Shown: piece by piece, positions 4,094 through 35,708 of the stretch | How the letters are laid out: each line of letters starts with the position of its first letter | How positions within the stretch are numbered: position 1 is the first letter of the stretch | From: Methylophagaceae bacterium | GTDB taxonomy: Bacteria > Pseudomonadota > Gammaproteobacteria > Nitrosococcales > Methylophagaceae | Assembly: GCA_965250845.1 (NCBI GenBank) | Contig: OZ252593.1 | Location: 1,001,916-1,065,915 of the forward strand | Length of the DNA: 64,000 nucleotides | Direction: 5' to 3' | Position numbers and translations under genes: made by a program | Notes under the pieces: generated by a model | What the model was told of the DNA's origin: nothing | The model's input: only the letters and a program-made list of their open reading frames with translations | Database searches by the model: none

Positions 4094-4131
4094 AACTCAC
4101 CTCCTACACCCTCCCAAACAGTCCCGAAAGC

Positions 4132-4331
4132 AAAGCCATGCAGCAGCTTTCTGCGTTAGACTGACTTCCTATAGTTCGCTATTGCTACGTAAACCTGCCT
4201 TGATATCCACTAAAATAAAGACACTGGTCATATGATTATAGGTTTGTTTTATCTATTTCGAGTCCGTGACCGTTCATAAGTGATTGTAAACTAGAATGTT
4301 GCTGACTATTCTTATCCAAAGTTTAGGTTAA
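4132..4331 (+). repeat. Copy A (5'-truncated, internally deleted) of a ~235-bp TTAA-ended non-coding element
   Basis: Shares blocks GCGTTAGA, GCTATTGCTACG, CTGCCTTGATATCCACTAAAATAAAG-CACTGG, ATTGTAA, TTGCTG-CTA and TTTAGGTTAA with 43828-44060 and 60727-60970. It lacks the left terminal repeat and the first hairpin arm. Confidence 0.6.
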
Positions 4332-4365
4332 ATAGAAAAAGCCACATAGCTTATGATCGTATTTA

Positions 4366-4467
4366 TTAATTATCTATACATGACAGTACAACGTGTAAAG
4401 AAAATTGAATTATCTATACATGACGGGTACTATGTGTAAAGAAAACTGAATTATCTATACATGACGA
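4366..4467 (+). repeat. 2.5 tandem copies of a ~41-bp unit directly upstream of fic (possible operator or iteron-like array)
   Basis: TTATCTATACATGAC occurs at 4370, 4410 and 4451; the first two units also share GTGTAAAGAAAA-TGAA. Confidence 0.8.
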
Positions 4468-4486
4468 TTTCATTAAGGACTGCATT

Positions 4487-5569
4487 GTGAATGAACCTGA
4501 ATTGCCCTTTTTGCCGCCCACCATGGAGCTAGAAACTAAGCCTGTGTTACGAAAGTTAACCAAGGCTCATCGGTATCTTGCTGAGTTAAAAGGCGTGGTT
4601 GGCACTATACCTAATGAAGGTATTTTAATTAATACACTGACATTACAAGAGGCCAAGGATAGCTCAGAAATTGAAAATATAATCACTACGCATGATGAAT
4701 TATACAAAAGTGCGTTATTTGAAGGTGTGATCAAAAACCTATCTGCTAAAGAAGTAAGGCACTATGCAACTGCATTACGTGCGGGATTTGTAGAGGTTCG
4801 TAAAACTGGATTAATTACTACCAATTTGATTATTTCCCTGTACCAAGAGCTAGAACAAAATGATGGTGGGCTTCGTCGTCAATCTGGCACGACATTAAAG
4901 AACGATAAAACAGGTGAGGTTATTTATACACCACCTCAAAGCCATGATGAAATAGTGGCGTTAATGACAAATTTAGAACAATTTATTAATGATGAATCTA
5001 TGTTTGATGTTGATCCCTTGGTAAAGATGGCGGTAATCCATCACCAGTTCGAAAGTATTCATCCCTTTTATGACGGCAATGGTCGTGCTGGCAGAATAAT
5101 CAATATTTTGTATTTGGTTGCACAGGGCTTACTAGATATTCCAATACTGTATTTAAGCGGCTATATCATCCAAACAAAGCAAGACTATTACCGTTTACTA
5201 CAAGATGTAAGGGATAGTGGCTCATGGGAAGAGTGGTTGATGTATATACTGGATGGAATAGAGGTCACTTCTCGTAATACGATCAAGTTAGTAACTGAGA
5301 TCAATAATCTGATGCAAGACTATAAGCACCGTATTAGAACTGAGCTACCTAAAATATATAGCCAAGAACTACTCAACAACCTATTCAGCCACCCCTATAC
5401 TAAAATTGAATACATGCAGCATGATTTAAATGTATCGAGGCTAACTGCTGGCAAATATTTAAGCCAATTAACCGAACATGGTTTGGTGAAGAAGCAAAAA
5501 ATAGGACGATATAATTATTATATTAATGAGCCATTGTTTAAATTATTCACAACACCACCATTTAAGTGA
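4487..5569 (+). CDS. Fic family protein (AMPylase-type; intramolecular inhibitory helix; C-terminal winged-helix)
   Basis: Fic motif HPFYDGNGRAGR; N-terminal S-x-x-x-E-N inhibitory motif (SSEIEN); C-terminal HTH-like LTAGKYLSQLTEHGLVKK. GTG start. Confidence 0.85.
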   Translation: MNEPELPFLPPTMELETKPVLRKLTKAHRYLAELKGVVGTIPNEGILINTLTLQEAKDSSEIENIITTHDELYKSALFEGVIKNLSAKEVRHYATALRAGFVEVRKTGLITTNLIISLYQELEQNDGGLRRQSGTTLKNDKTGEVIYTPPQSHDEIVALMTNLEQFINDESMFDVDPLVKMAVIHHQFESIHPFYDGNGRAGRIINILYLVAQGLLDIPILYLSGYIIQTKQDYYRLLQDVRDSGSWEEWLMYILDGIEVTSRNTIKLVTEINNLMQDYKHRIRTELPKIYSQELLNNLFSHPYTKIEYMQHDLNVSRLTAGKYLSQLTEHGLVKKQKIGRYNYYINEPLFKLFTTPPFK

Positions 5570-5677
5570 TCATGAATGAATTGCAGTAAGCAATATTTGG
5601 TGGTAACTATGGCTTTAAAAATATTCATATATGCAATTCAAAGGCTAAAGACGAGTAGCATCAGCTATCAGCAGAAC

Positions 5678-8600: not shown

Positions 8601-8812
8601 AGAGTAGCAATAGAAAGAGTACTTAGCGCTAGGAGTGAAGTCTCAAAAATATCATGTAGGATTATATAGAGTAATACAGCAACAAGTATTTGTGCAGCAC
8701 TCGCTGGGAGGGCGGCTAGAAATAGCTGGCGGGCCTGTTCTTGAATTACTGGTTTTGAACCTATGGGCATTTTAGAGAATAAAGCCTTTTTAAGTACCTT
8801 AAGCTTGACCAT
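5678..8812 (-). CDS. Membrane sensor PAS-PAS-GGDEF-EAL protein with C-terminal CZB-like module
   Basis: About 7 predicted N-terminal TM helices, PAS repeats, RQGGDEF, EALIRW...DDFGTGYSS, then a ~125-aa tail with H-x(n)-CHLGKW-x(n)-H. Confidence 0.9.
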   Translation of the reverse strand: MVKLKVLKKALFSKMPIGSKPVIQEQARQLFLAALPASAAQILVAVLLYIILHDIFETSLLALSTLSIATLALTRAFLSKRYEKKQPQDITPWLTLFTLITLLIGISWGSLSLLYLSTDDVSIQSVFLIMICGVMSASVPVLSAWTPAYYAMTVPQFITFFSILIYQNENYSYFLAACFLVYYLMLISLQKKTNHNIKRSFELEHKNDELISQLNIEIEQRENLIADRTHELNDNLKRLDFALGTAHQGWFDLNLQTGEIAVSDEYPRLLGYEPHEFHTNFQEWRDNIHPDDLESVLFAFQECITSGNSKEMEYRRRTKDNQWCWFHSIGEVTEWDDKNQATRLVGIHRDITEQKASAEALEDSEIKFHTLFDSTMDAVMLSKDGKFLDGNTATLALFGCASVKELCTKSVVDVSPKKQPCGTSSLLLSQQHLELAIKKGSHYFEWEHKRLDTGETFPADVLLSTLTIHGQALVQATVRNISDRKKSEEKLNLMAHYDVLTKLPNRALFSDRFSQALAHSKRTESMLAICFLDLDNFKPINDNFGHAIGDLLLIEVANRLKMTIREEDTASRQGGDEFTLLLRDIESFAQCEQLLNRVCQSLAQPYVINGHTHNLSISLGSTIYPLDNSDLDTLLRHADQAMYQAKLAGKDQLKLFNALDDQKIAHKQTQRQEISQALGNKEFCLYYQPKVNMKTGQVFGVEALIRWIHPDKGLIPPLDFLPLIANTDLEIQIGGWVINEALQQLHDWQQQGIKLKVSINISSHHLQSLAFFDQLNEALNKYPDIDSQDVELEILESSALGDIHTVSGIIKSCQNVLGVNVALDDFGTGYSSLTHMRNLSANTIKIDQSFVRDLLNNPNDYSIIEGVIGLARAFNRKVIAEGVETEAHGIVLLIMGCYDAQGFGISPPLPADNIPAWLLNYQPNQSWINYSNESHSEQEDKIKIFQLTTKHWFQNVNNVLLTMADRGFDDYLIKCHLGKWLSRFKDKAIFDDDWLEELQKAHDIFYILAEKLIALHHAGNIEEARKGIEPLKIAYEKVNTLLSS

Positions 8813-9115: not shown

Positions 9116-9592
9116 TTACAGTTTATTTTTCATTATCAAGATCATAACGCCTAAAAGAACCATTAGTACACCTAGAGAGATGGTATAGGTGAAGGGTTCA
9201 TTTAGTAAGTAAATTGCTAAAAAGATGGTGAAGACAGGGCCTAACATGCCCACCACGCCCGACTGTGCGGGGCCGATGCGGTGAATGGCCTCCGTCATCA
9301 TAAAACTTGGCAGCACAGTACTAAATATAACTAATAGACTGAGCCACAACCATGAAGAATTGCTTATTACTAATGAGGACCAATCTATCACTACAATGCC
9401 GTGGATTAGACCAAAGATACTGGATGCAATCATAGCAAGGCTGGTGAATAAGAGGCTGCCCAAACGTTTGATAAAGGATTTACTGAATAGAACATAGAAG
9501 GCAAAGCTTAAAGCAGAGGCTAATACGAAGCTGACGCCTTCTAATACATTATTTCCTGTTAGTTTGAGCTCTTGGCCCATTACAATCCCCAA
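9116..9592 (-). pseudogene. EamA/DMT transporter, C-terminal fragment (gene split by IS982-family insertion)
   Basis: Five TM segments of an EamA repeat. The reading frame continues in phase from the fragment at 10600-11028 once 9593-10599 is removed. Confidence 0.75.
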
Positions 9593-10599
9593 ACCTAAGT
9601 AACCTGAGATCTGGTTAAGAAACAGTCATCATACTAAATTCTTCGCTAGTAATTTTTAATGATGGCTTGTTCTCTTTAAGTGAGTAAGCGATAAGCCCAG
9701 CAATGATGTTCAGCATAAATCCATGCACACTACGATGCCTAGAATGCTCAACTTGAGTAATATTTTTAAGCTGATCGTTGATGGTTTCAATGATAAATCG
9801 CCTAGAAAGCATTGCTTTATCCCATGCAGAGAGTAATTTTGCTTTCATATTCTTCTTAACGTTAGTCACTAACTCAACCCCTTTATCGAACAAGTCACTA
9901 GACAATGCTTTACTGATATAGCCCTTATCAGCATATAATTTCCCTATCACGTCTTTAGCTAATTCAGGCACAGGTTTTCTGTCATCAACATTAGCAGGTG
10001 TGATTTTAGCTGCCAGAATATCACCGACATGATTGACAATAATGTGTAACTTAAATCCATAAAACCAGCCCATTGTTCCTTTGCCTCTTTTGGCTATTCC
10101 AGCAAACGTTTTATGCCGTTCAATACGAAGGTTATGGCAGACCTTTATACTGGTCGAATCAACAAAGCTAATACCCGTTGGCTTTCCTTTAACATGTGTG
10201 AAGTAAGCACACAAAGGCGTTAACGCCTTTGGCATCACGGCTAAGAATCGAGTATAACTGAGTAATTCTGGAAAATAGCTCTTATAAAACCTAGCAACAA
10301 GTCCTGTATAATAGTTTTTGAAATCACGTTGGTTTGATGAGTGAAATCCTATAATAATGGTCATTATTTCACTCATTGCCATTCGACCTTCTCTGTTTCG
10401 TTTTCGAGTACCATCTGCTAGAAGTTGTGCTTCCCACTGCGGCATAAATACCTTACAAAAATCATCGACATCACAGAATATGTCTGTTAATTTGTTCATA
10501 GGCCTGTTTTCCTTTCATCAAAATCTTTGTCGTAAAAGATCTGATCGGTTAACAGGCTTTTAGTTCCCATTTCTTAAACAGGATTCAGGTTAAGTAGGT
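9593..10599 (-). mobile_element. IS982-family insertion sequence (~1.0 kb)
   Basis: Imperfect ~30-bp terminal inverted repeats ACCTAAGTAACCTGAGATCTGGTTAAGAAA (9593-) and ACCTACTTAACCTGAATCCTGTTTAAGAAA (reverse complement ending at 10599) bracket a single DDE transposase gene. Target duplication not resolved. Confidence 0.8.
9615..10499 (-). CDS. IS982-family DDE transposase
   Basis: 294 aa; N-terminal DDFCK block and VDSTSIKVC...ADKGY...RFIIETINDQLKN blocks typical of IS982/IS4-like DDE transposases. Confidence 0.85.
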   Translation of the reverse strand: MNKLTDIFCDVDDFCKVFMPQWEAQLLADGTRKRNREGRMAMSEIMTIIIGFHSSNQRDFKNYYTGLVARFYKSYFPELLSYTRFLAVMPKALTPLCAYFTHVKGKPTGISFVDSTSIKVCHNLRIERHKTFAGIAKRGKGTMGWFYGFKLHIIVNHVGDILAAKITPANVDDRKPVPELAKDVIGKLYADKGYISKALSSDLFDKGVELVTNVKKNMKAKLLSAWDKAMLSRRFIIETINDQLKNITQVEHSRHRSVHGFMLNIIAGLIAYSLKENKPSLKITSEEFSMMTVS

Positions 10600-11028
10600 G
10601 ATGGTTAAGGCGATAATCAACCTTTTTGTAATGGTTTCATTAAAGAGAAAGAAGCCAATGATAGCAACGAGGAAGGGGTAGGTAAAAAGGCTTAACCTTT
10701 CAAGTTGAGCCGTAATTAATTCGAGGCCCATAAGGTCCAGCAGTGATGCTAAATAATAGCCCAAAAAACCGAGCAAAAAGACAGTTCTTAATGTACTAAA
10801 ATTAAAATGAGGATGGCGCGGGCGAGAGTGAAGCAGCCAGACTAAGATTGCACTATAAATGGGTAAAGCTAAAGCCATTCTCAATACTAAAACAGAGTCA
10901 GCATCTAAACCATTTTGGTAAAGAAACTTAATGAAGATAGATTTAAGTGAGAATAATAAAGTGCCACAAATCGCTAGAATAAATCCTAGGGAATGATTTC
11001 TTTGCTGCTCAAGCTCTGATAGGGGCAT
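10600..11028 (-). pseudogene. EamA/DMT transporter, N-terminal fragment
   Basis: First EamA repeat (about 4-5 TM). The listed ORF runs on into the IS inverted repeat, where it meets a stop (ORF 10585-11028). Confidence 0.75.
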
Positions 11029-18200: not shown

Positions 18201-19747
18201 TAATCAAATAAAGAACGTTCTTTATGAGACATAACAGGGAAAGGGGTGTCATCACCCATTGAACCTGTTGCTTCTTGGCCTACTTCACCTAATACGCGGA
18301 TAACTTGGTCACGTTCTTCAAAGCTAACTTGGAATAATTTCTCGTAGCTAACAAGATCTTCACCTTCAAGTGTCGGGCCGGTTTCATCATCAGCACTGTC
18401 TTCGATACGTTTAAGATTTTTTTCAATCCATTCGCGGTAAGGATGTGCTGTTTTTAATGATTCATTGATATCATCTGGAAGTAATAATTCACCCGTTAAA
18501 GTATCAATGGCTAACATTTGACCTGGTTTTAAGCGACCTTTAGTCACAACATCTTCGGGTTTGTATGGGTAAACACCGACTTCAGATGCAATCGTAATAT
18601 GACGATCTTTAGTGATGATATAACGAGCAGGACGTAAACCATTACGATCTAAAGAACAGGCAGCATAACGGCCATCTGTTAATACAACACCTGCAGGACC
18701 ATCCCATGGTTCCATATGCATAGAGTTATAGTCATAGAACGCTTTTAACTCAGCATCCATTGTATTGTCATTTTGCCATGCAGCAGGTACAAGTAAGCGC
18801 ATTGCACGGAACATGCTAATACCACCCGCCATCATAGCCTCAAGCATATTATCCATGCTTGATGAATCTGAACCTGTGGTATTCACCAATGGACGAATAT
18901 CATCCATATTGTCGATTAGTTTTGTTGCAAACTTAGCACCACGCGCCAAGGCCCAGTTACGGTTACCTTGAATCGTATTAATTTCACCATTGTGAGCTAA
19001 GTAACGGAAAGGTTGAGCTAGCTTCCATTGTGGCCATGTGTTGGTTGAGAAACGTTGGTGGAATACACAAATAGCCGTTTCCATACGTTTATCTTCTAAA
19101 TCTTTATAGAATGTAGGTAGGTACGAAGGCATCACTAAACCTTTGTATGACACTACATGAGCAGACAATGTTGGAATATAGAATGCGTCATCATCGGTAA
19201 TTGCTTTTTCAGATAAACGACGCGCTATATATAAGTGGCGTTCAAATGCTGCCTCATCCATATCGGGACCAGGATTAACAAATACTTGGCGCATGATTGG
19301 AAGTAACGCTAAGGCTGTTTCGCCACAAGCGGCTTCTGCATCAACTGGCACATCACGCCAGCCTAATACTTCAAGGCCTTGCTTGGTTAATTGTTCAGAG
19401 ACAATTGTTTGGTTTGCAGTTGCTTTAGCATCATCTTGCGATAAGAAGACCATACCAACGGCATAGTTATCAGCTAAAGAAAAACCAAGTTCATCTGCAA
19501 TGGCACGGAAAAACCCATCAGGTTTTTTCATTAATAAACCACAACCATCACCGGTTTTACCGTCGGCACCAATAGCGCCACGATGGGTTAGGTTACCTAA
19601 TGCTTCGATAGCTGTTTCAACTAACCAATGACTAGGTTTTCCGTCCATCTGAGCGATAAGACCGAAACCACAATTATCTTTTTCAAATTCAGGTCGATAT
19701 AGACCTTGTTCTAATTCTGTTGGCTGACTCAAGTCACACACCTTCAA
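15263..19747 (-). CDS. gltB: Glutamate synthase large subunit
   Basis: 1494 aa; Ntn-amidotransferase Cys in KDNCGFGLI; FMN and 3Fe-4S domain blocks. Listed start is TTG; the true start is uncertain within the first few codons. Confidence 0.95.
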
Positions 19748-20003
19748 ATTGATTCGATTAAATTCCAGTAAATAAAACGATACTGGCGCATACCATCTAT
19801 CAGAGACAGTAAAATGGATCTAACATTATAGCGGGTAAAAAGAGTTGCTTCAATCCTCTATAGTATAGGTGACTAAATTTAGGTGCTGATTTAGCATTAT
19901 TGAACGGAATCTGGTATGATTGTTCGTTCCAAGCACGTTCTATATTAAAGGTTTCTTTATCAGAAAATGTCTGAATAAAGGGCTGTAACTCAAGCGGGAG
20001 CCT

Positions 20004-20561
20004 ATGGTTAGTTTAGAAACACCTGTATGTGACTTTGACTTACCGGCAATAGATTTTTCTTTGCCAGGTACGGATGGCAAGATCTGGACACTTGAAGATT
20101 GTCGCGGTGAAAATGGCTTATTAGTCATGTTTATCTGCAATCATTGTCCTTATGTTAAAGCTATTCTTGACCGCCTTGTTCGAGATACCAACGAATTAAA
20201 ACAACTCGGTATTAACACCGTCGCAATCATGTCTAATGATATTGCCGACTATGAAGAAGACTCTTTTGACAATATGAAAAAAGTTGCTCAAGACAATGGT
20301 TTTTCCTTCCCTTATTTGCTTGACGAAACACAACAAACTGCCCAACAATACGGTGCAGTGTGTACCCCCGATTTCTTTGGTTATAACAAAGATCTTCAAT
20401 TGCAGTATCGCGGTCGCTTAGACGCAAGTCGTAAAGAAGCGGCAGCATCGGATGCGCGACGAGATTTATTTGAAGCAATGAAACAGGTTGCTGAGACAGG
20501 CCGTGGCCCACAACAACAAATCCCAAGTATGGGTTGCTCGATCAAATGGCGAGCAGCGTAA
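20004..20561 (+). CDS. Thioredoxin-fold thiol-disulfide oxidoreductase (AhpC/TSA-redoxin-like)
   Basis: C-x-x-C motif in FICNHCPYV; 185 aa. Confidence 0.75.
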   Translation: MVSLETPVCDFDLPAIDFSLPGTDGKIWTLEDCRGENGLLVMFICNHCPYVKAILDRLVRDTNELKQLGINTVAIMSNDIADYEEDSFDNMKKVAQDNGFSFPYLLDETQQTAQQYGAVCTPDFFGYNKDLQLQYRGRLDASRKEAAASDARRDLFEAMKQVAETGRGPQQQIPSMGCSIKWRAA

Positions 20562-20779
20562 TGAGTACTTTGCATAATATGACGATAGTTATCTCCTTAT
20601 ATTGTGCAAAATACTTTGTAAAATTGTATGTGTAACGGCTCAGATTGCCTTTAAAATTTGCCAGTTCAAGGCAGGAAATGTGAACTCACACCGTTGAGTG
20701 ACCATTTCTGAACAAAGAAATGGTGAATTTTAAAAGTTAGCTGAGTTGTTATTAATTTTTATTTAACAGGAGAATATAA

Positions 20780-27113: not shown

Positions 27114-28163
27114 ATGGCTTTAGTTTCAATGCGACAACTTTTAGATTATGCAGCAGAACATAGTTTTGCTATTCCAGCATTTAATATCAGCAATATGGAG
27201 CAAGTTCACGCCATTATGCAGGCAGCCGATGCAGCAGATAGCCCTGTAATAATGCAAGGCTCAGCGGGTGCACGAAAATATGCGGGTGAACCTTTTTTAC
27301 GTCATTTAATTTTGGCAGCTATTGAAGAATATCCTCACATTCCTGTTGTTATGCATCAAGATCATGGTTCTGCCCCGCATGTGTGTGCACGATCTATTCA
27401 ATCTGGTTTTAGTTCAGTGATGATGGATGGTTCTTTACTAGAAGACATGCAAACGCCATCATCATTTGAATATAATGTTCGAGTTACTCGTCAAGTAGTT
27501 GATATGGCACATGCTTGTGGCGTATCAGTTGAAGGTGAAATTGGCTGTTTAGGCTCACTAGAAACAGGCATGATGGGTGAAGAAGATGGACATGGTTCAT
27601 TAGAAAAGCTAGATCAGAGTCAATTATTGACCGATCCTGATGAAGCTGTTGAATTTGTGAAGCAAACTCAGGTTGATGCTTTAGCTGTAGCAATTGGAAC
27701 GAGTCATGGTGCTTATAAGTTTTCTAAACCACCCACCGGTGAAGTGTTAGCAATAAGCCATTTAAAAACATTACAACAACGCCTACCTAATACCCACTTT
27801 GTCATGCACGGCTCAAGCTCAGTACCGCAAGATTGGTTAAAAATCATTAACGATCATGGTGGTGATATCGCTCAAACTTATGGTGTGCCAGTAGAAGAAA
27901 TAGTAGAAGGTATTAAATACGGTGTACGTAAAGTCAATATTGATACCGACTTACGCATGGCATCAACAGGTTCTATTCGCCGATATTTAGCACAAGAAGA
28001 GAATGCATCAAACTTTGACCCTCGAAAGTTTTATAAAGTCGCATTAGAAGCCATGAGCACAATTTGCCAAGCACGTTATGAAGCTTTTGGTAGTGCAGGT
28101 CATGCAAGTAAGATTAAAGTCGTTCCTTTAGACCAAATGGTTTGTCGTTATACCTCTGGGTAA
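27114..28163 (+). CDS. fba: Fructose-bisphosphate aldolase, class II
   Basis: 349 aa; [29 protein letters not shown] blocks; last gene of the tkt-gap-pgk-pyk-fba cluster. Confidence 0.9.
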
Positions 28164-28259
28164 TATTTCCCTGTTTGGGCTTGGTTATCGACTTACTAGG
28201 AAATTTTGTCCGTATATGTATAGGAATTACAGGGAAACATTGTTCCTGTTAATAACAAG

Positions 28260-28466
28260 TTATGTTTTTATCTTTAGCAGTTCAATTCTTAATTTAGTTT
28301 CTTCTATTTTTAGCTTCTGTAGTTCAATTTCCTGCTCTGATTTGTGAAACTGAAAGAATGAATCATATCCTTGTAAAAATACCCAGGAATCACATGCAAT
28401 AAATACTGCTGCAAACATCCAAAAACCAAACCACATCATCCCATTATCCTTATTTTGTGTTTTCAT
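28260..28466 (-). CDS. Small membrane/coiled-coil protein (68 aa), unknown
   Basis: One TM helix then a heptad-like ELQKLKIEETKLRIELLKIK tail; sits before the first attC. Confidence 0.4.
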   Translation of the reverse strand: MKTQNKDNGMMWFGFWMFAAVFIACDSWVFLQGYDSFFQFHKSEQEIELQKLKIEETKLRIELLKIKT

Positions 28467-28489
28467 AAAATCCTCGCTGTGTATCGAAA

Positions 28490-28618
28490 CATAACAAAAA
28501 AATCAACAGCGACCACAAATAAGCGTCGTGTTTTTGAAAGTTCTGTTTTTTATTAAAATTAATGCCACTTGGATAAATTACTTTTTATCATTTGTGGCCC
28601 GTTATTTTGGCGTTAGAG
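28490..28618 (+). other. attC recombination site 1
   Basis: 5' arm ATAACAAAAAAATCAACAGCGACCACAAAT. Reverse complement of 3' arm TAACGCCAAAATAACGGGCCACAAAT, with unpaired bases. Ends GTTAGAG at 28612-28618. Confidence 0.7.
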
Positions 28619-28625
28619 AGTATTT

Positions 28626-28901
28626 ATGGGAACAGTAGTTGCGTTATTGGCCTTTGTTATATGTTGGTGTTATCCTGCATGGAAGGTTTTAACGTCAAAA
28701 AAAACTCCAATATTGAAAAAACTACCATGGTTAGCAGGCTTTGTAGTTTGTCTCATAACTCCAGCTTTAATTACATCTGTAGGTTCAGATGGACTGATCC
28801 ATGATGTAAATAAGTTTTTTATCGAAACCGTTGTCAGTCTTATAGTAGTTTTACTTATTCCTTCAATTATTCGTTTGCTTTATGAAAAAGTTAACTCTTA
28901 G
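28626..28901 (+). CDS. Small integral membrane protein (91 aa, about 3 TM), unknown
   Basis: Starts 8 nt after attC1 and is followed by attC2. Confidence 0.5.
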   Translation: MGTVVALLAFVICWCYPAWKVLTSKKTPILKKLPWLAGFVVCLITPALITSVGSDGLIHDVNKFFIETVVSLIVVLLIPSIIRLLYEKVNS

Positions 28902-28940
28902 AAAAATGATTAGAATCATCTTGAAAGTGTGGGGGAAACC

Positions 28941-29035
28941 TCTAACAAAAAGGTCAAATTCACTCCAGCCACAAAAAGCGTGGCTTCCGTTGGGACTGTC
29001 GCTATCGCGCCAGCCCCTTACCTAGATCGTTATGT
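28941..29035 (+). other. attC recombination site 2 (Vibrio-repeat-like 3' arm)
   Basis: TCTAACAAAAAGGTCAA ... GGGACTGTCGC/GCGCCAGCCCC ... TTACCTAGATCGTTATGT. The 23-nt CCAGCCCCTTACCTAGATCGTTA recurs at 34569-34591. Confidence 0.7.
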
Positions 29036-29109
29036 CCCCAAAGTTCAAACATCGTAGTTTATCTAATAACAAGCTGGTAGTGCCTAGTAGCCCCTGATAA
29101 AGTAATTAT

Positions 29110-29994
29110 GTGAGGAAGAAAGTGGATATCCCAGACATAAAATTTAATTACTCAACTATTGACTCAGAGGGGATTGAGATAATAGAACTTGATGAACTCT
29201 ATTATCGTAGGTCAAATATGGAACATGATCCTAATAAACCGCATCGAGTGAATTTTCACGTGCTGTTATATATTGAACAAGGAAAAGGTACACATTTTAT
29301 TGATTTCAACCACTACCCTTTCACAAAAGGTAGTTTTCTTTTTATCAATGAAAATCAAATTCATGCATTTTCATTAAATAATAAAATACAAGGGAAGGTG
29401 GTTCTCTTCACTAAAGAATATATTGAGAAAATTCAAACAAACATGAATGTGTCGGTGTTTTCACCTAGCCATTTGAATATCTCCTATTGCCCTGTTTTCA
29501 CACCTAGCCCACAATCAACGATCAGTTGTATATCGCTACTTTCTGAAATAGAAAAAGAAATGAAATATGAAGATAAAAACAGTTTGATAATCATGCTTTT
29601 ATTTTCTTCATTGTTCATTATGTTAGAGCGTGAAAGACCCAGCACTTATACAAGTAAGTTAAGTAAATCTCAAATAAAGAAATTTAACCATTTTACTACA
29701 TTACTCAATAAAAAATATACTGAGGAAAGACATGCTTCATATTATTCAGAAGAAGTATATATCACATATAAAACCTTAAATAATCTATGCAAACTGGCTA
29801 CTAACCACACTGTAAAACAGTTAATTGATGCTCATACAATAATCGAAGCAAAACGTCGTTTAATTCTGGAAAGAAAGCAAGTGCAGGAAATTGCAACTGA
29901 TCTTGGCTTTGAGGAAGCTAGCAACTTCGTTAAATATTTCAAAAAACATACTTTGCTCACCCCATTACAGTTCAAAAAACAAGCTGAATGTTAG
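29110..29994 (+). CDS. AraC/XylS-family transcriptional regulator
   Basis: N-terminal cupin-like half and C-terminal double HTH (IATDLGFEEASNFVKYFKKHT); GTG start. Confidence 0.8.
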   Translation: MRKKVDIPDIKFNYSTIDSEGIEIIELDELYYRRSNMEHDPNKPHRVNFHVLLYIEQGKGTHFIDFNHYPFTKGSFLFINENQIHAFSLNNKIQGKVVLFTKEYIEKIQTNMNVSVFSPSHLNISYCPVFTPSPQSTISCISLLSEIEKEMKYEDKNSLIIMLLFSSLFIMLERERPSTYTSKLSKSQIKKFNHFTTLLNKKYTEERHASYYSEEVYITYKTLNNLCKLATNHTVKQLIDAHTIIEAKRRLILERKQVQEIATDLGFEEASNFVKYFKKHTLLTPLQFKKQAEC

Positions 29995-30084
29995 AAATTT
30001 ACCATTTTTAAGATGAGACTGACCTTATGGAAACACCTTATTTCTTATAAACTTGAGTTCCTTAAATAAATAAAGAGAGTCAAA

Positions 30085-30939
30085 ATGAAAGCAATCATTT
30101 CAGTCACTACATTTATGATAGGCATAGTCTTTTTTTCTAATCTTTTTGCACAGGAACATAAAATGAATATATCTAATAAAGAAAAAGCCATTGCTTTACT
30201 AAATAGTATACAGACAGGTGATCAAACAGGCGTAAGTTATATTAATGCTGGCGAATACACTCAGCATGATTTATCTATTGGTGATGGTTTAGCTGGTTTT
30301 GGAGCGGTGCTTCAAGCATTACCTAAAGGCAGTGCCAAAGTTAATGTAGTACGGAGCTTTGAAGAGGGTGATTATGTCTTTACTCATACAGACTATAATT
30401 TCTTTGGGCCTAAAGTAGGTTTTGATATATTTCGATTCAAAGATGGTTTGATTGTCGAGCATTGGGATAATCTTGATGTAAAAGCGGACAAACCAAACCC
30501 AAGTGGTCGCACTCAACTTGATGGTACAACAACAATTACTGATATTGACAAAACAGAAGAAAACAAAGCATTAGTAAAGAGTTTCGTTGAAACTATCTTG
30601 ATGAAAGGTGAAATGGATAAAATTGCTAATTTCTTTGATGGTGATAATTATATCCAACATAATACAGCAATTGCAGATGGTTTATCTGGTTTGGGTCAAG
30701 CACTAGAAGCAATGGCGAAGCAAGGAATAAAAATGGTCTACACAAAAAACTATAAAGTATTAGGTGAAGGAAACTTTGTACTTAGTATTAGTGGCGGGCA
30801 GTTTGCTGGTAAAGATACCTCATTTTATGATTTGTTTAGAGTTGAAAACGGTAAAATTGCTGAGCACTGGGATATTGTTGAGCCAATAATTTCAAAAGAC
30901 CAATGGAAAAATAATAACGGAAAATTTGGTAATCTATGA
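30085..30939 (+). CDS. Secreted protein with two SnoaL/NTF2-like repeats
   Basis: Signal peptide; internal duplication (…YTQHDLSIGDGLAGFG…EHWDNL / …YIQHNTAIADGLSGLG…EHWDIV). Confidence 0.7.
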   Translation: MKAIISVTTFMIGIVFFSNLFAQEHKMNISNKEKAIALLNSIQTGDQTGVSYINAGEYTQHDLSIGDGLAGFGAVLQALPKGSAKVNVVRSFEEGDYVFTHTDYNFFGPKVGFDIFRFKDGLIVEHWDNLDVKADKPNPSGRTQLDGTTTITDIDKTEENKALVKSFVETILMKGEMDKIANFFDGDNYIQHNTAIADGLSGLGQALEAMAKQGIKMVYTKNYKVLGEGNFVLSISGGQFAGKDTSFYDLFRVENGKIAEHWDIVEPIISKDQWKNNNGKFGNL

Positions 30940-30945
30940 TAAACA

Positions 30946-31061
30946 CATAACAAGTTGCTCAACTTTGACAGCTAACTCAGCCCGCCTTTTGTGTATTCGC
31001 TATCGCTCATTATCACACAAAAGGCGGGCTGAGTTAGCTGCAAGTTAGCAAGGCGTTATGT
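30946..31061 (+). other. attC recombination site 3
   Basis: CATAACAAGTTGCTCAACTTTGACAGCTAACTCAGCCCGCCTTTTGTGT ... ACACAAAAGGCGGGCTGAGTTAGCTGCAAGTTAGCAAGGCGTTATGT. Long near-perfect arms with three unpaired bases. Confidence 0.8.
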
Positions 31062-31070
31062 GAAAAATAA

Positions 31071-31733
31071 ATGGATATAGAAATCATCAGAAAAAATAGA
31101 AATGTTATCAAATTAGCAATTTGGATTAAGGAAAATACGCATGCACTAAGAGTATTTGCAGGTGTTTTCTTTGTTTTAGCCTTATTAACAGGAGTTGTAT
31201 GGATTGCTGGAAATGATGTAGAACCTATAGCATATGTGTTAGGTCTTATTAGTTCTCTGTTCTTCGCTAGCCCATCAGTAGCAGAGTATATTCTCCCAAA
31301 TAGAAAGCCTGTAAGGCACATGGATTACGATGAAATTCTAAGTTTTATTAAAACAACGAATGCTAAAGAGGATTGGAAATTTATAAAAACTGATTGGGCT
31401 GAAGAAGCCTTTCTTAAAGAAGACCCGCGCTTGCGAATTAGAGTTAGGTGGGATGATGAGGGAATCCATGTTAAAGGTTTTATTGAGTCATGGGCAAATC
31501 GATTCCCAGACCCAACTGCCCATAGTTATTGGTATGGTTTATCATATGATGGTGCCCTGATTGAAAGGTTTATACTCGTATCAGTTGATGGTGGTCGGGC
31601 AGAATTACCGCTTCCAAATGCTGGGACTCTGATGGTTAAGCCTCTTATTTTTAAAGTTTCCCAAATATTTGATGAGCTAAACACACTTGATTCATATATG
31701 AATCGAACTGGTCTCAGTGTTGAAGACACATAA
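31071..31733 (+). CDS. Orphan protein, N-terminal 2 TM helices plus ~140-aa soluble domain
   Basis: Starts 10 nt after attC3; its TAA stop lies inside the ATAAC box of attC4. No motif recognised. Confidence 0.6.
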   Translation: MDIEIIRKNRNVIKLAIWIKENTHALRVFAGVFFVLALLTGVVWIAGNDVEPIAYVLGLISSLFFASPSVAEYILPNRKPVRHMDYDEILSFIKTTNAKEDWKFIKTDWAEEAFLKEDPRLRIRVRWDDEGIHVKGFIESWANRFPDPTAHSYWYGLSYDGALIERFILVSVDGGRAELPLPNAGTLMVKPLIFKVSQIFDELNTLDSYMNRTGLSVEDT

Positions 31734-31826
31734 CAATCAAATCCACTTGACCGTAAAAAACGTCACAAATTTTTGCTGTCGCAAAATTTGTGCCCCTTTT
31801 TACGTCAAGTGATTTGGGCGTTACAT
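31729..31826 (+). other. attC recombination site 4
   Basis: CATAACAATCAAATCCACTTGACCGTAAAAAACG ... CCCCTTTTTACGTCAAGTGATTTGGGCGTTACAT. Arms complementary apart from two bulged C residues. Confidence 0.8.
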
Positions 31827-31844
31827 GCCTAGAATCGGAGCAAT

Positions 31845-32435
31845 ATGAAAGATTTGGTTGCGCAATTAGTGCAAGAAAAAAAAGAAGGAGAATGGTGGGA
31901 CTTTAAGTTAAAACACCATACCAATCTTGCTGATCTACTGCATGATATTCTTTGTATGGCTAATATCCTATATAAAGGCGATAGATATATTGTTTTTGGT
32001 GTTAATGATGACTATGAGATGGTCGGAATTAATAAAAGTGATAAAAGAAATACCCAAGCAGATATTTTGGACTTTTTGAGAAAGAAGAGTTTCGCAAATT
32101 ACAACATACCAAGTATTGAATTAAGCATACATGCTTTTGATAATATAGAAATTGATCTGCTAACAATAAAAGATTCAAAGGATAAGCCGTATTTTTTAAC
32201 CAAAGATGAAAGCAAGGGTAAGTCTACAGTTAGATCTGGTGTTATTTACTCTAGGTTAGGTGACTCCAACACCCCCAAAGATGGTTGTGCAAACCCGTAT
32301 GAAATTGAGGCTATGTGGCGAGAAAGATTTGGGCTAAATGATAAGGCTTCAGATCGTTTTATAAAGGTTTTGTTAGATTTCAATAATTGGCAATATGATG
32401 GTATTGGTATATCAAGGGGTCAGATCCTGTCTTGA
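31845..32435 (+). CDS. AlbA_2 / Schlafen-like putative DNA-binding domain protein (possibly 3'-altered by the IS110 insertion)
   Basis: EWWDFK...ILCMANILYKGDRYIVFGVNDD...GI...KPYFL...VIYSRLGDSN pattern typical of AlbA_2 domains. The ORF ends about 10 nt before the IS110-family element. Confidence 0.6.
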   Translation: MKDLVAQLVQEKKEGEWWDFKLKHHTNLADLLHDILCMANILYKGDRYIVFGVNDDYEMVGINKSDKRNTQADILDFLRKKSFANYNIPSIELSIHAFDNIEIDLLTIKDSKDKPYFLTKDESKGKSTVRSGVIYSRLGDSNTPKDGCANPYEIEAMWRERFGLNDKASDRFIKVLLDFNNWQYDGIGISRGQILS

Positions 32436-32454
32436 AAAGCAAGCTTAATCTGCT

Positions 32455-33420
32455 TTAATGTTGATAATTCACATCAAACGGTTTACCTGATTTCAATACA
32501 CCATAAGCTAATACTAAGAGCTTTCGCATGACAGCTACTAACGCTACTTTTTTCGGTTTCCCTTTCGCTAGCAGCTTAGTATAAAAAGCCATCATTCTGG
32601 GGTTGAATCTTACCGCAACCAGCGCTGGCATATAAAGTGATTTTCGTAGCCTAGCATTACCCATTTTAGATAATCGTGTTCGGTTAACGCTGCTGCCAGA
32701 TTGTTCTATTCTCGGATTAAGACCCGCATAACTACTCATTTGTTTTGCATTTTCAAATAAGGAAACGTCACCGATATAAGCTAATATTGACCATGCGGTT
32801 TTGTCACCTAAACCGATAATACTCGTTAGTAAGTGAACCTGCGTATTGAGTGAGTCATTTTGCTTAACAATTTTGGCAATTTCCTTTTTTATGTTGCTCA
32901 GTTGCTTATCAATAAAAGTGAGCATAGCTTTAATTGACCGGGCAGCTGCTTTATCTAAACTAACATCAAACCGATTATTTTCTTGTGACCGCACTTTGTT
33001 CAGTTGGTCTAGTCGTGTAACCAGAAACTGAAGTCGTTCAAAGTCAGCTTCCTTTGGCGTGTAAAGGCTTTTATTTGCTCTTCCTTGCCTATCTAAATGC
33101 TGACAATATCGAGCAATGCTCATCGCATCTGCTTTGTCTGTTTTATTACGCGTCATTTCCATTTTAGCAAAAGCATGCGTTTGAATAGGGTTGGCAACAA
33201 TCACTTTCTGCTGGTGACTGACTAAATACTTTGCCAATGCCAGTCCGTAAATTCCCGTTGCTTCCATACAAAAAAGAGCGGGCGTGTTAAATGGTTTTAC
33301 CCATGCTAGGCAAGCTTTAAATCCAGCAAGATCATTGTCAAAATGACGATGATGGTAGTGCCCTTCATTCAAAATAGCCACATCAAAACTCAATTTAGAA
33401 ATATCCATTCCAATATACAT
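32455..33420 (-). CDS. IS110-family (DEDD/RuvC-like plus Tnp domain) transposase
   Basis: MYIGMDISKLSFDVA...CMEATGIYG N-terminal DEDD blocks and C-terminal GIG...YAGL.P...SG block; 321 aa. Confidence 0.9.
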   Translation of the reverse strand: MYIGMDISKLSFDVAILNEGHYHHRHFDNDLAGFKACLAWVKPFNTPALFCMEATGIYGLALAKYLVSHQQKVIVANPIQTHAFAKMEMTRNKTDKADAMSIARYCQHLDRQGRANKSLYTPKEADFERLQFLVTRLDQLNKVRSQENNRFDVSLDKAAARSIKAMLTFIDKQLSNIKKEIAKIVKQNDSLNTQVHLLTSIIGLGDKTAWSILAYIGDVSLFENAKQMSSYAGLNPRIEQSGSSVNRTRLSKMGNARLRKSLYMPALVAVRFNPRMMAFYTKLLAKGKPKKVALVAVMRKLLVLAYGVLKSGKPFDVNYQH

Positions 33421-33680
33421 TTTCTACTCCTAATATTTTAAGGTAAAATGAAGAGGATTGGATGATTTAACGCGGATGCATTCTTGTCGTTATACGTGCT
33501 ACGGATTGTCCCCGTGCACAAGATCCTGTTCGCATTTTTGGGCGTTAAAATAAGGGGTAGGCACTAATCTGACCCACAGAACTTGTTGGTTCTAAGCCTA
33601 CTTTCAGTGTCTCTACCCCTTTATCCAATCTTCATTGAATAGTGTAAATCATAGCGATTGATTTGCACGGGACTTAAGAT
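33421..33680 (-). ncRNA. Candidate bridge (guide) RNA in the IS110 left non-coding end
   Basis: Nested inverted repeats (AAGGGGTAG 33552-33560 / CTACCCCTT 33613-33621; GTCCCCGTGCA 33508-33518 / TGCACGGGAC 33664-33673). The 9-mer AGATCCTGT (33521-33529) is repeated in the flank at 32422-32430. Confidence 0.4.
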
Positions 33681-33726
33681 ACAAGCCAGCTTGATTTTAA
33701 ATTAACTCATTGCTATACTACAAAAT

Positions 33727-34446
33727 ATGGCACGCCTACCTAGAATCGTTATTCCCAACCAACCCTTGCATATCATGCATCGCGGCAATAATAAACAAGA
33801 TATCTTTGAGTCTGACGAAGATATGATGCGAATAAAAGAAGATATTGCTCACGCCCTATTAAAGTCAGACTGTCAATTGCATGCCTATGTCATTATGAGT
33901 AATCATCTGCATTTACTGATCTCTCCAAAAGACAAACAACAGCTTGCTACTTTTATGCAAGCAATGGCTAATCGCTATGTTAGATATTTCAATGCAACGC
34001 GTCAGCAAACGGGCACGATATGGGAAGGACGCTTTAAATCTTGTTTAGTTGATAGTGAACATTATCTTTTCACGCTGCATAAATATATTGAAATGAATCC
34101 GGTTAAGGCAAATATGGTGAAGCAGGTTGCTGATTATAAATGGTCAAGCTATCATCACAATGCATTAGGCGAAGTAGATAACCTTATTACTGAACATTCA
34201 CTCTATGGGGAGTTAGGCGGTACCCTGGAGCAGCGGCGCACACATTACCGAAACTTGTTTGATAATCTGGATATTAGTCAGCAACAAGCGCAGATAAGCA
34301 AGGCCACTCTAGCGGGAGATGTTTATGGTAGTGACGCGTTTCATACTAAAATTAGCAAGCTAATTTCGAGGGTGACAAAGCGAGGAGCCCATGGCGGGGA
34401 TAGAAAAAGCGATGAATATAAAAAATCAAGCTGGCTGACCCCTTGA
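33727..34446 (+). CDS. REP-associated tyrosine transposase (RAYT; IS200/IS605-like Y1 HUH family)
   Basis: HUH motif in MSNHLHLLI, catalytic-Tyr region HKYIEMNPVKA; flanked by a perfect 14-bp inverted repeat. Confidence 0.8.
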   Translation: MARLPRIVIPNQPLHIMHRGNNKQDIFESDEDMMRIKEDIAHALLKSDCQLHAYVIMSNHLHLLISPKDKQQLATFMQAMANRYVRYFNATRQQTGTIWEGRFKSCLVDSEHYLFTLHKYIEMNPVKANMVKQVADYKWSSYHHNALGEVDNLITEHSLYGELGGTLEQRRTHYRNLFDNLDISQQQAQISKATLAGDVYGSDAFHTKISKLISRVTKRGAHGGDRKSDEYKKSSWLTP

Positions 34447-34566
34447 TACTTTAAAATAGGCCAATTGATTTCTAGGGCGACTAGGTTAACTTCTCATGGT
34501 GGTGATCGAAAAAGTGCTGAATATCGACAGAACAATGATTAAGCGACGCCCACTTTCTTTACTTAA

Positions 34567-34595
34567 GGTCCAGCCCCTTACCTAGATCGTTAGGT
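34567..34595 (+). other. attC 3' arm (same family as attC2); 5' arm uncertain (possibly from about 34529)
   Basis: CCAGCCCCTTACCTAGATCGTTAGGT is identical over 23 nt to the attC2 3' arm. Confidence 0.55.
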
Positions 34596-34597
34596 GT

Positions 34598-34852
34598 TTA
34601 ATAATGATAACGAAGTTGAGCAATTAAAATATTGTTTTCAGTTACTTTGTATACAATTCTATGCTCATCATTGAGGCGTCGTGACCAAAATCCAGACAAG
34701 GCATGTTTTAAAGGTTCAGGTTTACCGATCCCTTCAAAAGGGTTTCGCTGAATATCTTTAATCAAGGTATTAATTCTTTTTACCATGGTTTTATCGGTTT
34801 TTTGCCAGTAAAGGTAACTATCCCATGCTTTAGGTGCAAAGGTCAGATTCAT
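34598..34852 (-). CDS. yoeB: YoeB (Txe/YoeB family) mRNA interferase toxin
   Basis: 84 aa; ...GIGKPEPLKHALSGFWSRRLNDEHRIVYKV...YHY matches YoeB hallmark residues; 4-nt overlap with yefM. Confidence 0.9.
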   Translation of the reverse strand: MNLTFAPKAWDSYLYWQKTDKTMVKRINTLIKDIQRNPFEGIGKPEPLKHALSGFWSRRLNDEHRIVYKVTENNILIAQLRYHY

Positions 34853-35100
34853 TCAATTAATTCTCGTTCGATACCTTTACCATCTTCAAGAGCAGCAATT
34901 GATTCAAGTAAATCTCGAGCATTAGCCGGTGAACGGAGCAAGTATGTTGTTTCCTCCATGGCCTGATAATCTTCTAAGGAAAGCATTACAACAGGTGACT
35001 CACGTTTTCGAGTAATAATTATAGGGGCATGGTCATTGCAAACCTGCTCCATCGTTTTAGATAAATTTGCACGGACAGCGGTATAGCTTATTGCATCCAT
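34849..35100 (-). CDS. yefM: YefM (Phd/YefM family) antitoxin
   Basis: 83 aa; MDAISYTAVRANLSKTMEQV...PVVMLSLEDYQAMEETTYLLRSPANA. Confidence 0.9.
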   Translation of the reverse strand: MDAISYTAVRANLSKTMEQVCNDHAPIIITRKRESPVVMLSLEDYQAMEETTYLLRSPANARDLLESIAALEDGKGIERELIE

Positions 35101-35116
35101 AAGAGCCTCATTTATA

Positions 35117-35140
35117 ATATGTACAGATTAAAGTACGTAT
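35117..35140 (-). promoter_or_regulatory. Putative YefM-YoeB operator (paired GTAC-core palindromes)
   Basis: TGTACA at 35120-35125 and AGTACG at 35132-35137, centre-to-centre 12 bp, 20-37 nt upstream of the yefM ATG. Confidence 0.5.
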
Positions 35141-35150
35141 AGTATAGTTA

Positions 35151-35254
35151 CACATAATCAAAAAATCCAGCTGACCATTTAAAGGGTCACGGTTTTTGCT
35201 ATTCGCAAAAAGCCATGCCCCTTGATTCCCCCCGCTAAGGAAACACCGTTATTT
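35151..35254 (+). other. Degenerate terminal attC-like site
   Basis: The 5' arm CACATAATCAAAAAATCCAGCTGACC resembles the attC4 5' arm. Central GGTTTTTGC/GCAAAAAGCC pair; the 3' arm is eroded; ends GTTATTT. Confidence 0.4.
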
Positions 35255-35333
35255 TGCTAGAGATACAATCAGTTGCGAGCAAAAGACTGGAATAAGGTAA
35301 ACTATGCCCTTTGATTTGTATTGAGAAGATAGA

Positions 35334-35708
35334 GTGCAGCAATTATTAGCTATTGCTGGTGGTGGGGCCTTAGGTGCTGTAATGCGCTTTGGCGTATCAT
35401 CAGGCGTTTATCGAGTACTGGGTAGGGACTTTCCATACGGAACCTTGGCAGTTAATGTGCTTGGCTCTTTATTAATGGGGCTGTGTTTCATATTAATGGT
35501 TGAACGAAACATCTTATCCATGGAATGGCGCGGCGTTATTATGATTGGCTTCCTTGGTGCATTCACGACTTTTTCTACCTTTTCGATGGAAACATTAAGC
35601 CTATTAGAATCTGGTGAGTTAACACGCGCATTATTAAATATTCTGTTAAGTGTGACTTTATGTCTTGCTGCAACATGGGTTGGACTAACAATCGGGAGGC
35701 AGATTTAA
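35334..35708 (+). CDS. crcB: Fluoride ion channel CrcB
   Basis: 124 aa, 4 TM; GGALGAVMRF and GFLGAFTTFSTF signatures; GTG start. Confidence 0.9.
   Translation: MQQLLAIAGGGALGAVMRFGVSSGVYRVLGRDFPYGTLAVNVLGSLLMGLCFILMVERNILSMEWRGVIMIGFLGAFTTFSTFSMETLSLLESGELTRALLNILLSVTLCLAATWVGLTIGRQI

Follow-up and report, generated by a model that had tools for sequence, protein, structure and literature searches.

How did 7.1 kb of DNA carrying attC-like palindromes come to lie between two core genes of a gammaproteobacterium, and is that DNA an integron? The question is raised by the junction between fba, which encodes a class II fructose-bisphosphate aldolase (27114-28163, plus strand), and crcB (35334-35708, plus strand). 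Both are open reading frames (ORFs) from the ORF list of a 64-kb stretch of DNA, hereafter the window, in which all coordinates are given; the place of crcB is further supported by synteny in relatives. The host is a Methylophaga/Piscirickettsiaceae-like gammaproteobacterium, the fba product sharing 80-90% amino acid identity with metagenome-assembled genomes (MAGs) of that kind. A first-pass annotation, made from the letters of the window, had read the region as CALIN-like, that is, as clustered attC sites that lack an integrase (CALIN). Our analysis supports this: positions 28164-35247, in the spacer between fba and crcB of this Methylophaga-like host, are very probably a CALIN, as judged from the geometry of the attC sites, their rank under a covariance model (R2, below), a cassette shared with another array, relatives that have no insert, and the lack of an integrase in the 64 kb. 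The CALIN is an already known class, of which this is a well-preserved copy with no new mechanism.

The block is an insertion into a core-gene junction, since in eight relatives (L005, L007, L008, L009, L011, L109, L110, and L111) the fba-crcB spacer measures only 150-280 bp, as against the 7.1 kb of the window (28164-35333). Here and below, L numbers denote comparison loci, which include relatives, plasmids, and metagenome contigs. The gene order in all eight is fba, then crcB-DUF190-serS, and the comparison of the junction that the first-pass annotation had proposed thus turned up relatives without the inserted genes at fba-crcB. The annotation was likewise right that the sequence turns AT-rich between the core genes, the GC content being 0.30-0.39 across 28250-32500 and 0.40-0.44 in the flanks. 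On the left, in the junction region 28164-28258, similarity to the relatives is confined to the first 20 nt or so; GTT cores lie within it at 28248-28254 (GTTAATA) and just past its end at 28259-28265 (GTTATGT). On the right, the ancestral spacer can be recognized at 35248-35333 (plus strand), where GTTATTTT ... ACAATCAGTTGCGAGC ... GGTAAACTA aligns with the relatives L008 and L105.

The CALIN reading is carried first of all by four well-formed attC sites. They are attC1 (28489-28618, 130 nt; ACATAAC-AAAAA-AAT[C]AAC[A]G ... GTTATT-TTGGC-GTTAGAG), attC2, with a branched loop (28940-29035, 96 nt; CTCTAAC-AAAAA-GGT[C]AAA ... CTTACC-TAGATC-GTTATGT), attC3, with a 26-bp perfect inner stem (30945-31061, 117 nt; ACATAAC-AAGTT-GCT[C]AAC ... 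GTTAGC-AAGGC-GTTATGT), and attC4 (31728-31826, 99 nt; ACATAAC-AATCA-AAT[C]CACTTGAC[C]GT ... GTGATT-TGGGC-GTTACAT), all on the plus strand. One layout is common to the four: a 7-nt R'' box ending in TAAC, a 5-nt spacer, and an L'' box of 3 nt, an extra C, and at least 3 nt more, followed on the 3' side of a variable centre by a complementary 6-nt L' box, a spacer of 5-6 nt, and a 7-nt R' box starting with GTTA. The R'' and R' boxes (xxxTAAC ... GTTAxxx) pair at 4-7 of their 7 positions in every site, and the four sites have a mismatch of 2-3 nt after the R box. All four likewise carry the extra C as the fourth base of L'', where the bottom strand has G, and a second bulge occurs in attC1, attC3, and attC4. 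At 96-130 nt, the sites are within the length range of 57-141 nt that has been published (PMC5371416).

A scanner, which is a rule encoding attC geometry only, found exactly four distinct sites in the region, all on the plus strand; these are the four that the first-pass annotation had placed, to within 1-2 nt, and the bulges that it had quoted for attC4 are correct. Run over the DNA of relatives (1.3 Mb, or 2.6 Mb counting both strands), the scanner gives a background of 27 matches; this amounts to 0.07 for each 7.2 kb of a strand, and dinucleotide shuffles of the region yield 0.25. With the box cores relaxed to AAC/GTT, it recovered seven of eight genuine class-1 attCs from plasmids; with a slightly looser R-box threshold, it fits six attCs that adjoin bona fide IntI genes (contigs L100 and L102). 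The C bulge is present in these six as well, and likewise in class-1 cassettes. Some of the boxes recur in genuine sites: the spacers of attC3, AAGTT/AAGGC, are those of the estX attC, its L boxes, GCT[C]AAC/GTTAGC, are those of an IntI-adjacent attC in L102, and the L box of attC2, GGT[C]AAA/CTTACC, matches GGT[C]AAG/CTTACC of the class-1 orfF attC.

The spacing of the sites is that of cassettes, as had been noted at the outset: successive attCs are 322, 1910, and 667 bp apart, ORFs start 8, 75, 10, and 19 nt downstream of R', and the stop codon of a 220-aa ORF falls within R'' of attC4. A half site that the first-pass annotation had reported further downstream is real as well; it is the 3' half of an attC (34570-34595, plus strand; L' CTTACC, spacer TAGATC, R' GTTAGGT) and agrees with the 3' half of attC2 at 25 of 26 positions.

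When the bottom strands were folded with DNA parameters, a check proposed at the outset, attC3 (-47 kcal/mol, z -12 against shuffles) and attC4 (-30 kcal/mol, z -8) each formed the full bulged hairpin. For attC1 and attC2 the canonical fold lies at most 1 kcal/mol above the minimum free energy (0.6 and 0.9 kcal/mol, respectively), and attC1 shows no folding advantage over shuffles (z -1.35). The probability of the R/L-box-paired fold is 0.14 for attC1, 0.17 for attC2, 0.88 for attC3, and 0.75 for attC4, computed with a constraint set that only approximates that of Loot et al., who take a probability above 0.1 as recombinogenic (PMC5371416). Overall, attC2 is the weakest of the four sites.

No attC family exists in Rfam, and the sole match in an Rfam search of the region was a spurious one of a miRNA to the attC3 hairpin (mir-2300 on the inner stem, 30968-31041; 36.9 bits, below the gathering score of 90). 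Two covariance models were made for the comparison with genuine sites. The first, R1, was built from 10 class-1 attCs and was dropped as too GC- and sequence-specific, having nearly missed the genuine dfrA1 and arr-3 attCs, which reach only 12-14 bits with it. Its place was taken by R2, built from 23 sites aligned by R1 (class-1 arrays plus two IntI-adjacent environmental arrays) and containing no window sequence. When R2 was run over both strands of the whole window (128 kb of strand) with filters off, the top three matches were attC3 (21.5 bits, E 0.006), attC4 (15.3 bits, E 0.2), and attC1 (14.5 bits, E 0.31), all of full length and with the ends given by the scanner; the next match was noise at 12.1 bits. 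In a local search of 7.3 kb, the respective E values were 7e-4, 0.023, and 0.035, the half site scored 6.6 bits, and the degenerate site that closes the array (see below) was undetected. On 1.37 Mb of other loci, R2 matched only other cassette arrays (three sites in L010, one in L090, and one in L093). By the IntegronFinder convention of E<1, three of the four window sites pass under this surrogate model. Hence neither of two outcomes that the first-pass annotation had named as fatal to its reading is seen: the candidates do not all fall below the threshold, and the palindromes are not scattered, none occurring elsewhere in the window or, other arrays apart, in 1.3 Mb of relatives.

The next piece of evidence is the movement of a cassette. 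Cassette D (31056-31820, plus strand) consists of the 220-aa orphan ORF (31071-31733) and attC4, and it is also found in arrays on the metagenome contigs L090-L092, where an identical copy of the protein is encoded. At the nucleotide level, L090 1342-2112 matches window 31052-31823 with 97.7% identity; the match begins at R' of the upstream attC (GTTATGTG...) and ends at R' of the cassette's own attC (...GGGCGTTA), and the neighbouring cassettes are unrelated on both sides. Homology with these bounds is the footprint expected of integrase-mediated exchange at G|TT, so far as it can be read from sequence. L090 is an array of the same attC style as the window, and a comparison of attC4 with its L090 copies, three related sites in all, shows compensatory changes in 7 of the 39 pairs of the stem, with the bulges kept. 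The 220-aa protein has a weak match to the C-terminal part of the PADLOC profile PDC-S50. More distant homologues of it occur outside arrays, and another is encoded in L093, in a two-cassette insert within a PrimPol/AlpA island, where the last attC has the non-canonical R' box GCGAATG. L090 carries defence cargo too, in the form of a three-gene cassette (3271-4922) with an IetA-like AAA ATPase (PADLOC E 6e-28).

The first-pass annotation had stated that no tyrosine recombinase ORF exists in the 64 kb, and this was confirmed. A tblastn search with IntI1 (taken from the plasmid locus L082) against all six frames of the window gave a best E value of 1.4, and Pfam assigned no Phage_integrase domain (PF00589) to any of 40 window ORFs. 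The sole "tyrosine" enzyme in the window is a Y1/HUH transposase associated with repetitive extragenic palindromes (REPs), which belongs to a different superfamily. Among the best 120 IntI1 relatives listed, all are at least 75% identical to it and betaproteobacterial-type or clinical. By definition a CALIN has two or more attC sites, spaced by 4 kb at most, and neither intI nor an intI pseudogene within 10 kb (Cury et al. 2016, PMC4889954). The window has an attC array with gaps of 322, 1910, and 667 bp and no tyrosine recombinase, and hence the array is classed as a CALIN; for a complete integron the integrase is lacking, and fba ends 326 bp before attC1. We know of no general sequence signature by which an attI site could be recognized.

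If the block is a CALIN, how did it arise? Of the explanations that compete with capture in place, the one that survives best is that of a decayed or split integron, in which the intI-attI platform was deleted or separated by rearrangement and the cassettes were left behind. This is the classical explanation for CALINs (PMC4889954), and signs of age are present in the half attC, the degenerate terminal attC, a truncated cassette, an insertion sequence (IS), and a REP-associated tyrosine transposase (RAYT) gene. Moreover, attC arrays are found in the Methylophaga-like loci L010, L090, and L103, so integrons circulate in the lineage. However, the end of the array where intI and attI would be expected is occupied by fba, with 326 bp from its stop codon to attC1 and no integrase-like frame or fragment there, and neither array boundary has an IS. 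The eight relatives have the short cassette-free spacer, and so no ancestral integron is visible at the locus. Finally, the attCs are heterogeneous (96-130 nt, with differing loops), whereas those of large sedentary integrons are homogeneous (PMC4889954). On this evidence we consider decay in place unlikely. The polarity at the intI end, the lack of flanking ISs, and the heterogeneity of the attCs lead us to favour another route within the CALIN reading, namely one in which an integrase supplied in trans captures a first cassette at a secondary site and further cassettes are then stacked on it by attC x attC insertion, a proposal for and against which the balance is about even.

The terminal site bears on this proposal. 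The first-pass annotation had placed an eroded attC at the end of the array, with GTTATTT (35248-35254) as its R' box. An attC geometry fits there only with the limits 35152-35240 on the plus strand, which makes the site a degenerate one with the outer boxes R'' ACATAAT and R' GCTAAGG (35234-35240), the inner boxes L'' AAT[C]CAG and L' TTGATT, and the spacer CCCCCC. At the aligned position L008, which has no insert, reads GTTATTTTCC...ACAATCAGTTGCGAGC, including GTTATTT, so that this heptamer belongs to the ancestral chromosome; L105 reads ATTATTTG...ACAATCAGTTGCAAGC there. The ancestral spacer resumes a few nucleotides past the terminal attC. In the terminal site, whose central hairpin is intact, both invariant triplets are altered (AAC to AAT and GTT to GCT); the fold has a z of -2 and the R/L-paired fold a probability of 0.0002. 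A hybrid R' arising from insertion at a non-att site would take its G from the cassette and the rest from the chromosome, here G+CTAAGG, and the empty site under secondary-site capture in situ would read ...G|CTAAGGAAACACCGTTATTTT. The same non-canonical pattern is shown by the terminal R' of L093 (GCGAATG).

Insertion driven by IntI at genomic 5'-GWT-3' (attG) sites has been shown experimentally, and such insertions have been proposed as the source of single attC sites and small attC clusters (Loot et al., bioRxiv 10.1101/2022.09.11.507474). Under capture in trans, the bottom strand of each attC would fold into an R box, an unpaired spacer of 2-3 nt, an L box with the extrahelical G, and a variable loop, and the integrase would bind this folded strand, cut R' between its G and TT, and take cassettes out or put them in one at a time. 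The array would have been seeded by integrase-mediated insertion of a cassette at a secondary, attG-type genomic site in the fba-crcB spacer and would have grown by later attC x attC insertions, the terminal attC being a hybrid or mutated site that is probably inert now. The GC skew is positive on the plus strand throughout, which would put the bottom strands of the attCs on the template of the leading strand, as they are in 25 of 30 sedentary chromosomal integrons (PMC5371416). A scan for consensus promoters and terminators gave nothing above shuffles; the plus-strand cassettes would be promoterless and, if transcribed at all, might be served by read-through from the co-oriented tkt-gap-pgk-pyk-fba cluster. 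At a later stage the RAYT gene and its flanking repeats would have arrived, and then an IS110 element aimed at the repeat, destroying cassette E and half an attC.

Import of the whole 7-kb block by homologous recombination in the flanking genes, with the spacer as a hot spot and no integrase activity at the locus, is a further alternative. The fba-crcB spacer holds an unrelated 0.8-kb ORF without attC features in L105 (1904-2817) and an AAA-ATPase gene in L001 (3051-4783). With the window these make three unrelated inserts in three lineages, and they suggest a general hot spot where genes are inserted. In L105, the closest relative found, fba is 90% identical to that of the window, less than pyk (96%), crcB (94%), and DUF190 (97%), which hints at mosaicism; serS is 92% identical. 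Yet import explains delivery only, and the array would still have to be built by an integrase somewhere. Nor was a donor with the same array found in searches of homologues and of plasmid and phage collections; the collections returned for the block only gene-level matches of 65-71%. We regard this alternative as improbable. Still weaker, to the point of being very improbable, is the idea that the palindromes are ordinary REPs, bacterial interspersed mosaic elements, or terminators that resemble attC by chance: a RAYT gene does lie inside the region and attC1 folds no better than its shuffles, but the RAYT's own repeat is a different 27-nt sequence in two copies, the four attCs differ in sequence and length outside the R and L boxes and have no T-tails, they all lie on one strand, one per ORF or module, with none in the other 57 kb, and they match a model trained on real attCs, one of them bounding a transferred cassette exactly.

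Several points weigh against the CALIN reading or its proposed origin by capture in trans. Both R1 and R2 are home-made stand-ins for the IntegronFinder attC model, and because their calibration is rough, the covariance evidence appears supportive, not conclusive. Under R1 the window sites score 9-10 bits, which is noise level. Under R2, attC2 scores 7.0 bits, ranking fourth in the local search with exact ends but with a local E of 2.3, below threshold, and attC1 and attC4, taken over the whole window, pass with E values no better than 0.2-0.3. Homology bounded by cassette ends was seen for a single cassette, and recombination itself was not observed. The terminal junction, G|CT, misfits the published GWT preference. 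An empty site in a near-identical strain was sought among the relatives and not found, L105 being the best available. Since L105 carries a different 0.8-kb insert at the same place, the spacer may be a hot spot of recombination in general and not an integrase target.

The array consists of six cassette units with attC polarity on the plus strand throughout. Cassette A (28259-28612, plus strand) joins attC1 to a minus-strand ORF for a 68-aa protein with a single transmembrane segment (28260-28466) and no Pfam match. Cassette B (28613-29029, plus strand) joins attC2 to a 91-aa hydrophobic, membrane-type ORF (28626-28901), identified from the ORF list and a Pfam scan. Cassette C (29030-31055, plus strand) is unusually long, at 2026 bp, and has two genes recognized by Pfam, an AraC-type regulator (29110-29994) and a secreted protein with a tandem (double) SnoaL fold (30085-30939). 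The pair is adjacent in Vibrio sp. THAF190c as well (L185 2920-5062; 39% and 64% amino acid identity, respectively), outside any array, and thus cassette C seems to have captured a ready-made two-gene module. That the Vibrio SnoaL homologue might belong to a superintegron was considered and rejected, its context being ordinary and free of arrays.

Beyond cassette D, described above, lies cassette E (31821-32404, plus strand; ORF 31845-32435), which carries a truncated Schlafen/AlbA_2 candidate defence gene (Pfam PF04326, PADLOC PDC-S50); its protein is the N-terminal half only, covering positions 6-190 of the 387 of the PDC-S50 profile (E 3e-72). Cassette F (34590-35234) holds, in reverse orientation on the minus strand, the adjacent genes yoeB (34598-34852) and yefM (34849-35100), which form a YoeB-YefM type II toxin-antitoxin pair by Pfam (PF06769, 133 bits; PF02604, 86 bits) and NCBIfam. 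TIGR02116 reaches 121.5 bits, above its cutoff of 51.8, and PRK11409 reaches 112.2 bits, below its cutoff of 121. The membrane ORFs, the orphan, and the toxin-antitoxin pair had been recognized by the first-pass annotation, which made no mention of the IS110 element, the RAYT gene, the AraC-SnoaL pair, or the truncated defence gene.

Between cassettes E and F, the array has been invaded by two transposase genes. The RAYT gene (33727-34446, plus strand), of the Y1/HUH type, was identified from Pfam, NCBIfam (REP_Tyr_transpos, 78 bits against a cutoff of 80), and comparison with homologues. It has a +1 frameshift in a terminal A-run, and the shifted frame restores KNQAG*, the C-terminus of 236-aa homologues. 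The gene is flanked by inverted 27-nt repeats, one at 32405-32423 plus 33686-33705, split by the IS110 element, and one intact at 34421-34447, overlapping the RAYT stop; no further copies were found in the 64 kb. Because the 27-nt repeat (AAAAAATCAAGC...) looks like the 5' arm of an attC, it was considered as one; this was rejected, since it encodes the conserved RAYT C-terminus KNQAG*. Downstream of the gene follow the 30-codon 3' end of a second, diverged RAYT (34453-34542, plus strand; recognized by translation against the C-termini of homologues) and then the orphan attC 3' half. In all, the 3' part of cassette E and one and a half attCs are missing from the array.

The IS110-family element (32424-33685, minus strand; 1262 bp) has a transposase gene at 32455-33420, identified by Pfam and by NCBIfam NF033542, "IS110 family RNA-guided transposase" (245 bits against a cutoff of 140). 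Its ends were set from the intact repeat and from L090, where the same motif has an IS, 75% related to this one, at the same position (5344-5357). In the window the element interrupts the left copy of the 27-nt palindromic RAYT-flanking motif, AAAATCAAGCTGG|CTGACCCCTTGATA. Upstream of the transposase gene, a stretch of 265 nt (33421-33685) has 7-8-mers that match both target halves and both IS ends. In IS110 elements, the bridge or seek RNA matches target and donor (PMC11208160, PMC11187229), and the short matches in 33421-33685 are as expected for a candidate bridge or seek RNA; an Rfam search of this region matched no family. We had also considered the element as an IS1111-attC member inserted in the attC of cassette E, with TTTGGGCGTTAAAAT (33536-33550) as the 3' end of that site. 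This was rejected, the sequence lying inside the IS; in addition, identity to the IS1111-attC element of L084 is 23% over 114 aa, and the insertion is in the RAYT-flanking repeat.

A RAYT of the same family with the same flanking motif is present in another cassette array, L103 (attC 2417-2494, 13.4 bits), and the family also stands beside tandem motif copies in the Methylophaga MAG L104, where no attC was detected. Copies of the inverted flanking repeat are present in the window, L103, and L104. Overall, RAYTs with flanking repeats and IS110 elements that may home to these repeats recur in the arrays of the lineage (the window, L090, and L103); of four contigs with a RAYT gene that were compared, three show the association.

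Some observations lie outside the array itself. Another Methylophaga MAG (NORP65, L010) has at 19400-20700 three R2-supported attCs, which lie on its minus strand and resemble attC1 in their AAT[C]AAC style, and a repeat of about 150 bp, ending in GTTCCCACCGCCGCTGGCGGTGGGAACGCC, is present there in two copies. Elsewhere in the window (9116-11028), an EamA-family transporter gene is split in two (9116-9592 and 10585-11028) by the gene for an IS5-type DDE transposase (9615-10499, minus strand). A tRNA-Met gene (4017-4093) precedes a gene with a Fic/DOC domain (4487-5569) and a minus-strand ORF of 1044 aa (5678-8812); the region 4017-8812 may be a small island at a tRNA gene.

CALINs are common, about half of them occurring in genomes without an integrase, and both their origin and their role as a cassette reservoir are debated. 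The locus described here is a clean case, in which relatives allow the junction's ancestral state to be reconstructed, one cassette has demonstrably moved between arrays, and the terminal site looks like a hybrid of attC and genome. It is therefore a natural test bed for the secondary-site (attG) model, and it extends the range of hosts in which integron cassettes bear defence-type cargo to marine methylotrophs of the Methylophaga type. We put forward only tentatively, as a rather doubtful extension, that the array was assembled in place by the attG route and offers a natural multi-cassette example of it in a 2.6-Mb methylotroph genome, perhaps one without its own integrase, and that the recurrence of RAYT and IS110 in arrays hints at preferential colonization of attC-rich DNA by transposases that use single-stranded DNA hairpins.

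How does the array compare with known systems? From the CALINs described previously (PMC4889954) it has no essential difference: like them, it has at least two attCs less than 4 kb apart, neither intI within 10 kb nor an intI pseudogene, and non-resistance, mostly unknown cargo, and its fewer than six intact attCs place it with 83% of CALINs. Its own features are the position wedged between core metabolic genes and the later invasion by IS110 and RAYT. With the cassettes inserted at attG sites and the single attC sites lacking an integrase (SALINs) of Loot et al. (bioRxiv 10.1101/2022.09.11.507474), it shares the intergenic position outside attI, a hybrid-looking terminal R', and a co-oriented upstream operon; it differs in having six units instead of one, G|CT in place of GWT, and no integrase known from its genome, and an attG origin is here only a proposed reading of the junction. 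Like sedentary chromosomal integrons such as the Vibrio cholerae superintegron, it is chromosomal, contains a reverse-oriented toxin-antitoxin cassette along with defence-type and orphan cargo, and appears to have its attC bottom strands on the template of the leading strand. In contrast to them, no intI, attI, or cassette promoter (Pc) was found in it, and it has four intact heterogeneous attCs where they have a repeat of the type of the Vibrio cholerae repeat (VCR).

At the level of single sites, the box geometry is identical to that of class-1 attCs (aadA1, estX, and orfF), whereas the window sites are AT-rich with long loops and are barely seen by a class-1-only model. The invading elements have counterparts of their own. 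In IS1111-attC elements, exemplified by the one in the smr attC of the plasmid locus L084, an IS110-family element likewise lies among cassettes, to which its transposase is antisense; there the long non-coding region is downstream of the transposase, whereas in the window IS it is upstream. Members of that group have transposases closely related to those of ISPa21-type elements and insert at a fixed position of an attC L'' box. The REP-targeting IS110 elements of the IS621 type (PMC11208160, PMC11187229) share the fixed position in a short palindrome, here the one flanking the RAYT gene. In REP/RAYT systems, lastly, the repeats are dispersed genome-wide, whereas the window has only the two copies in 64 kb.

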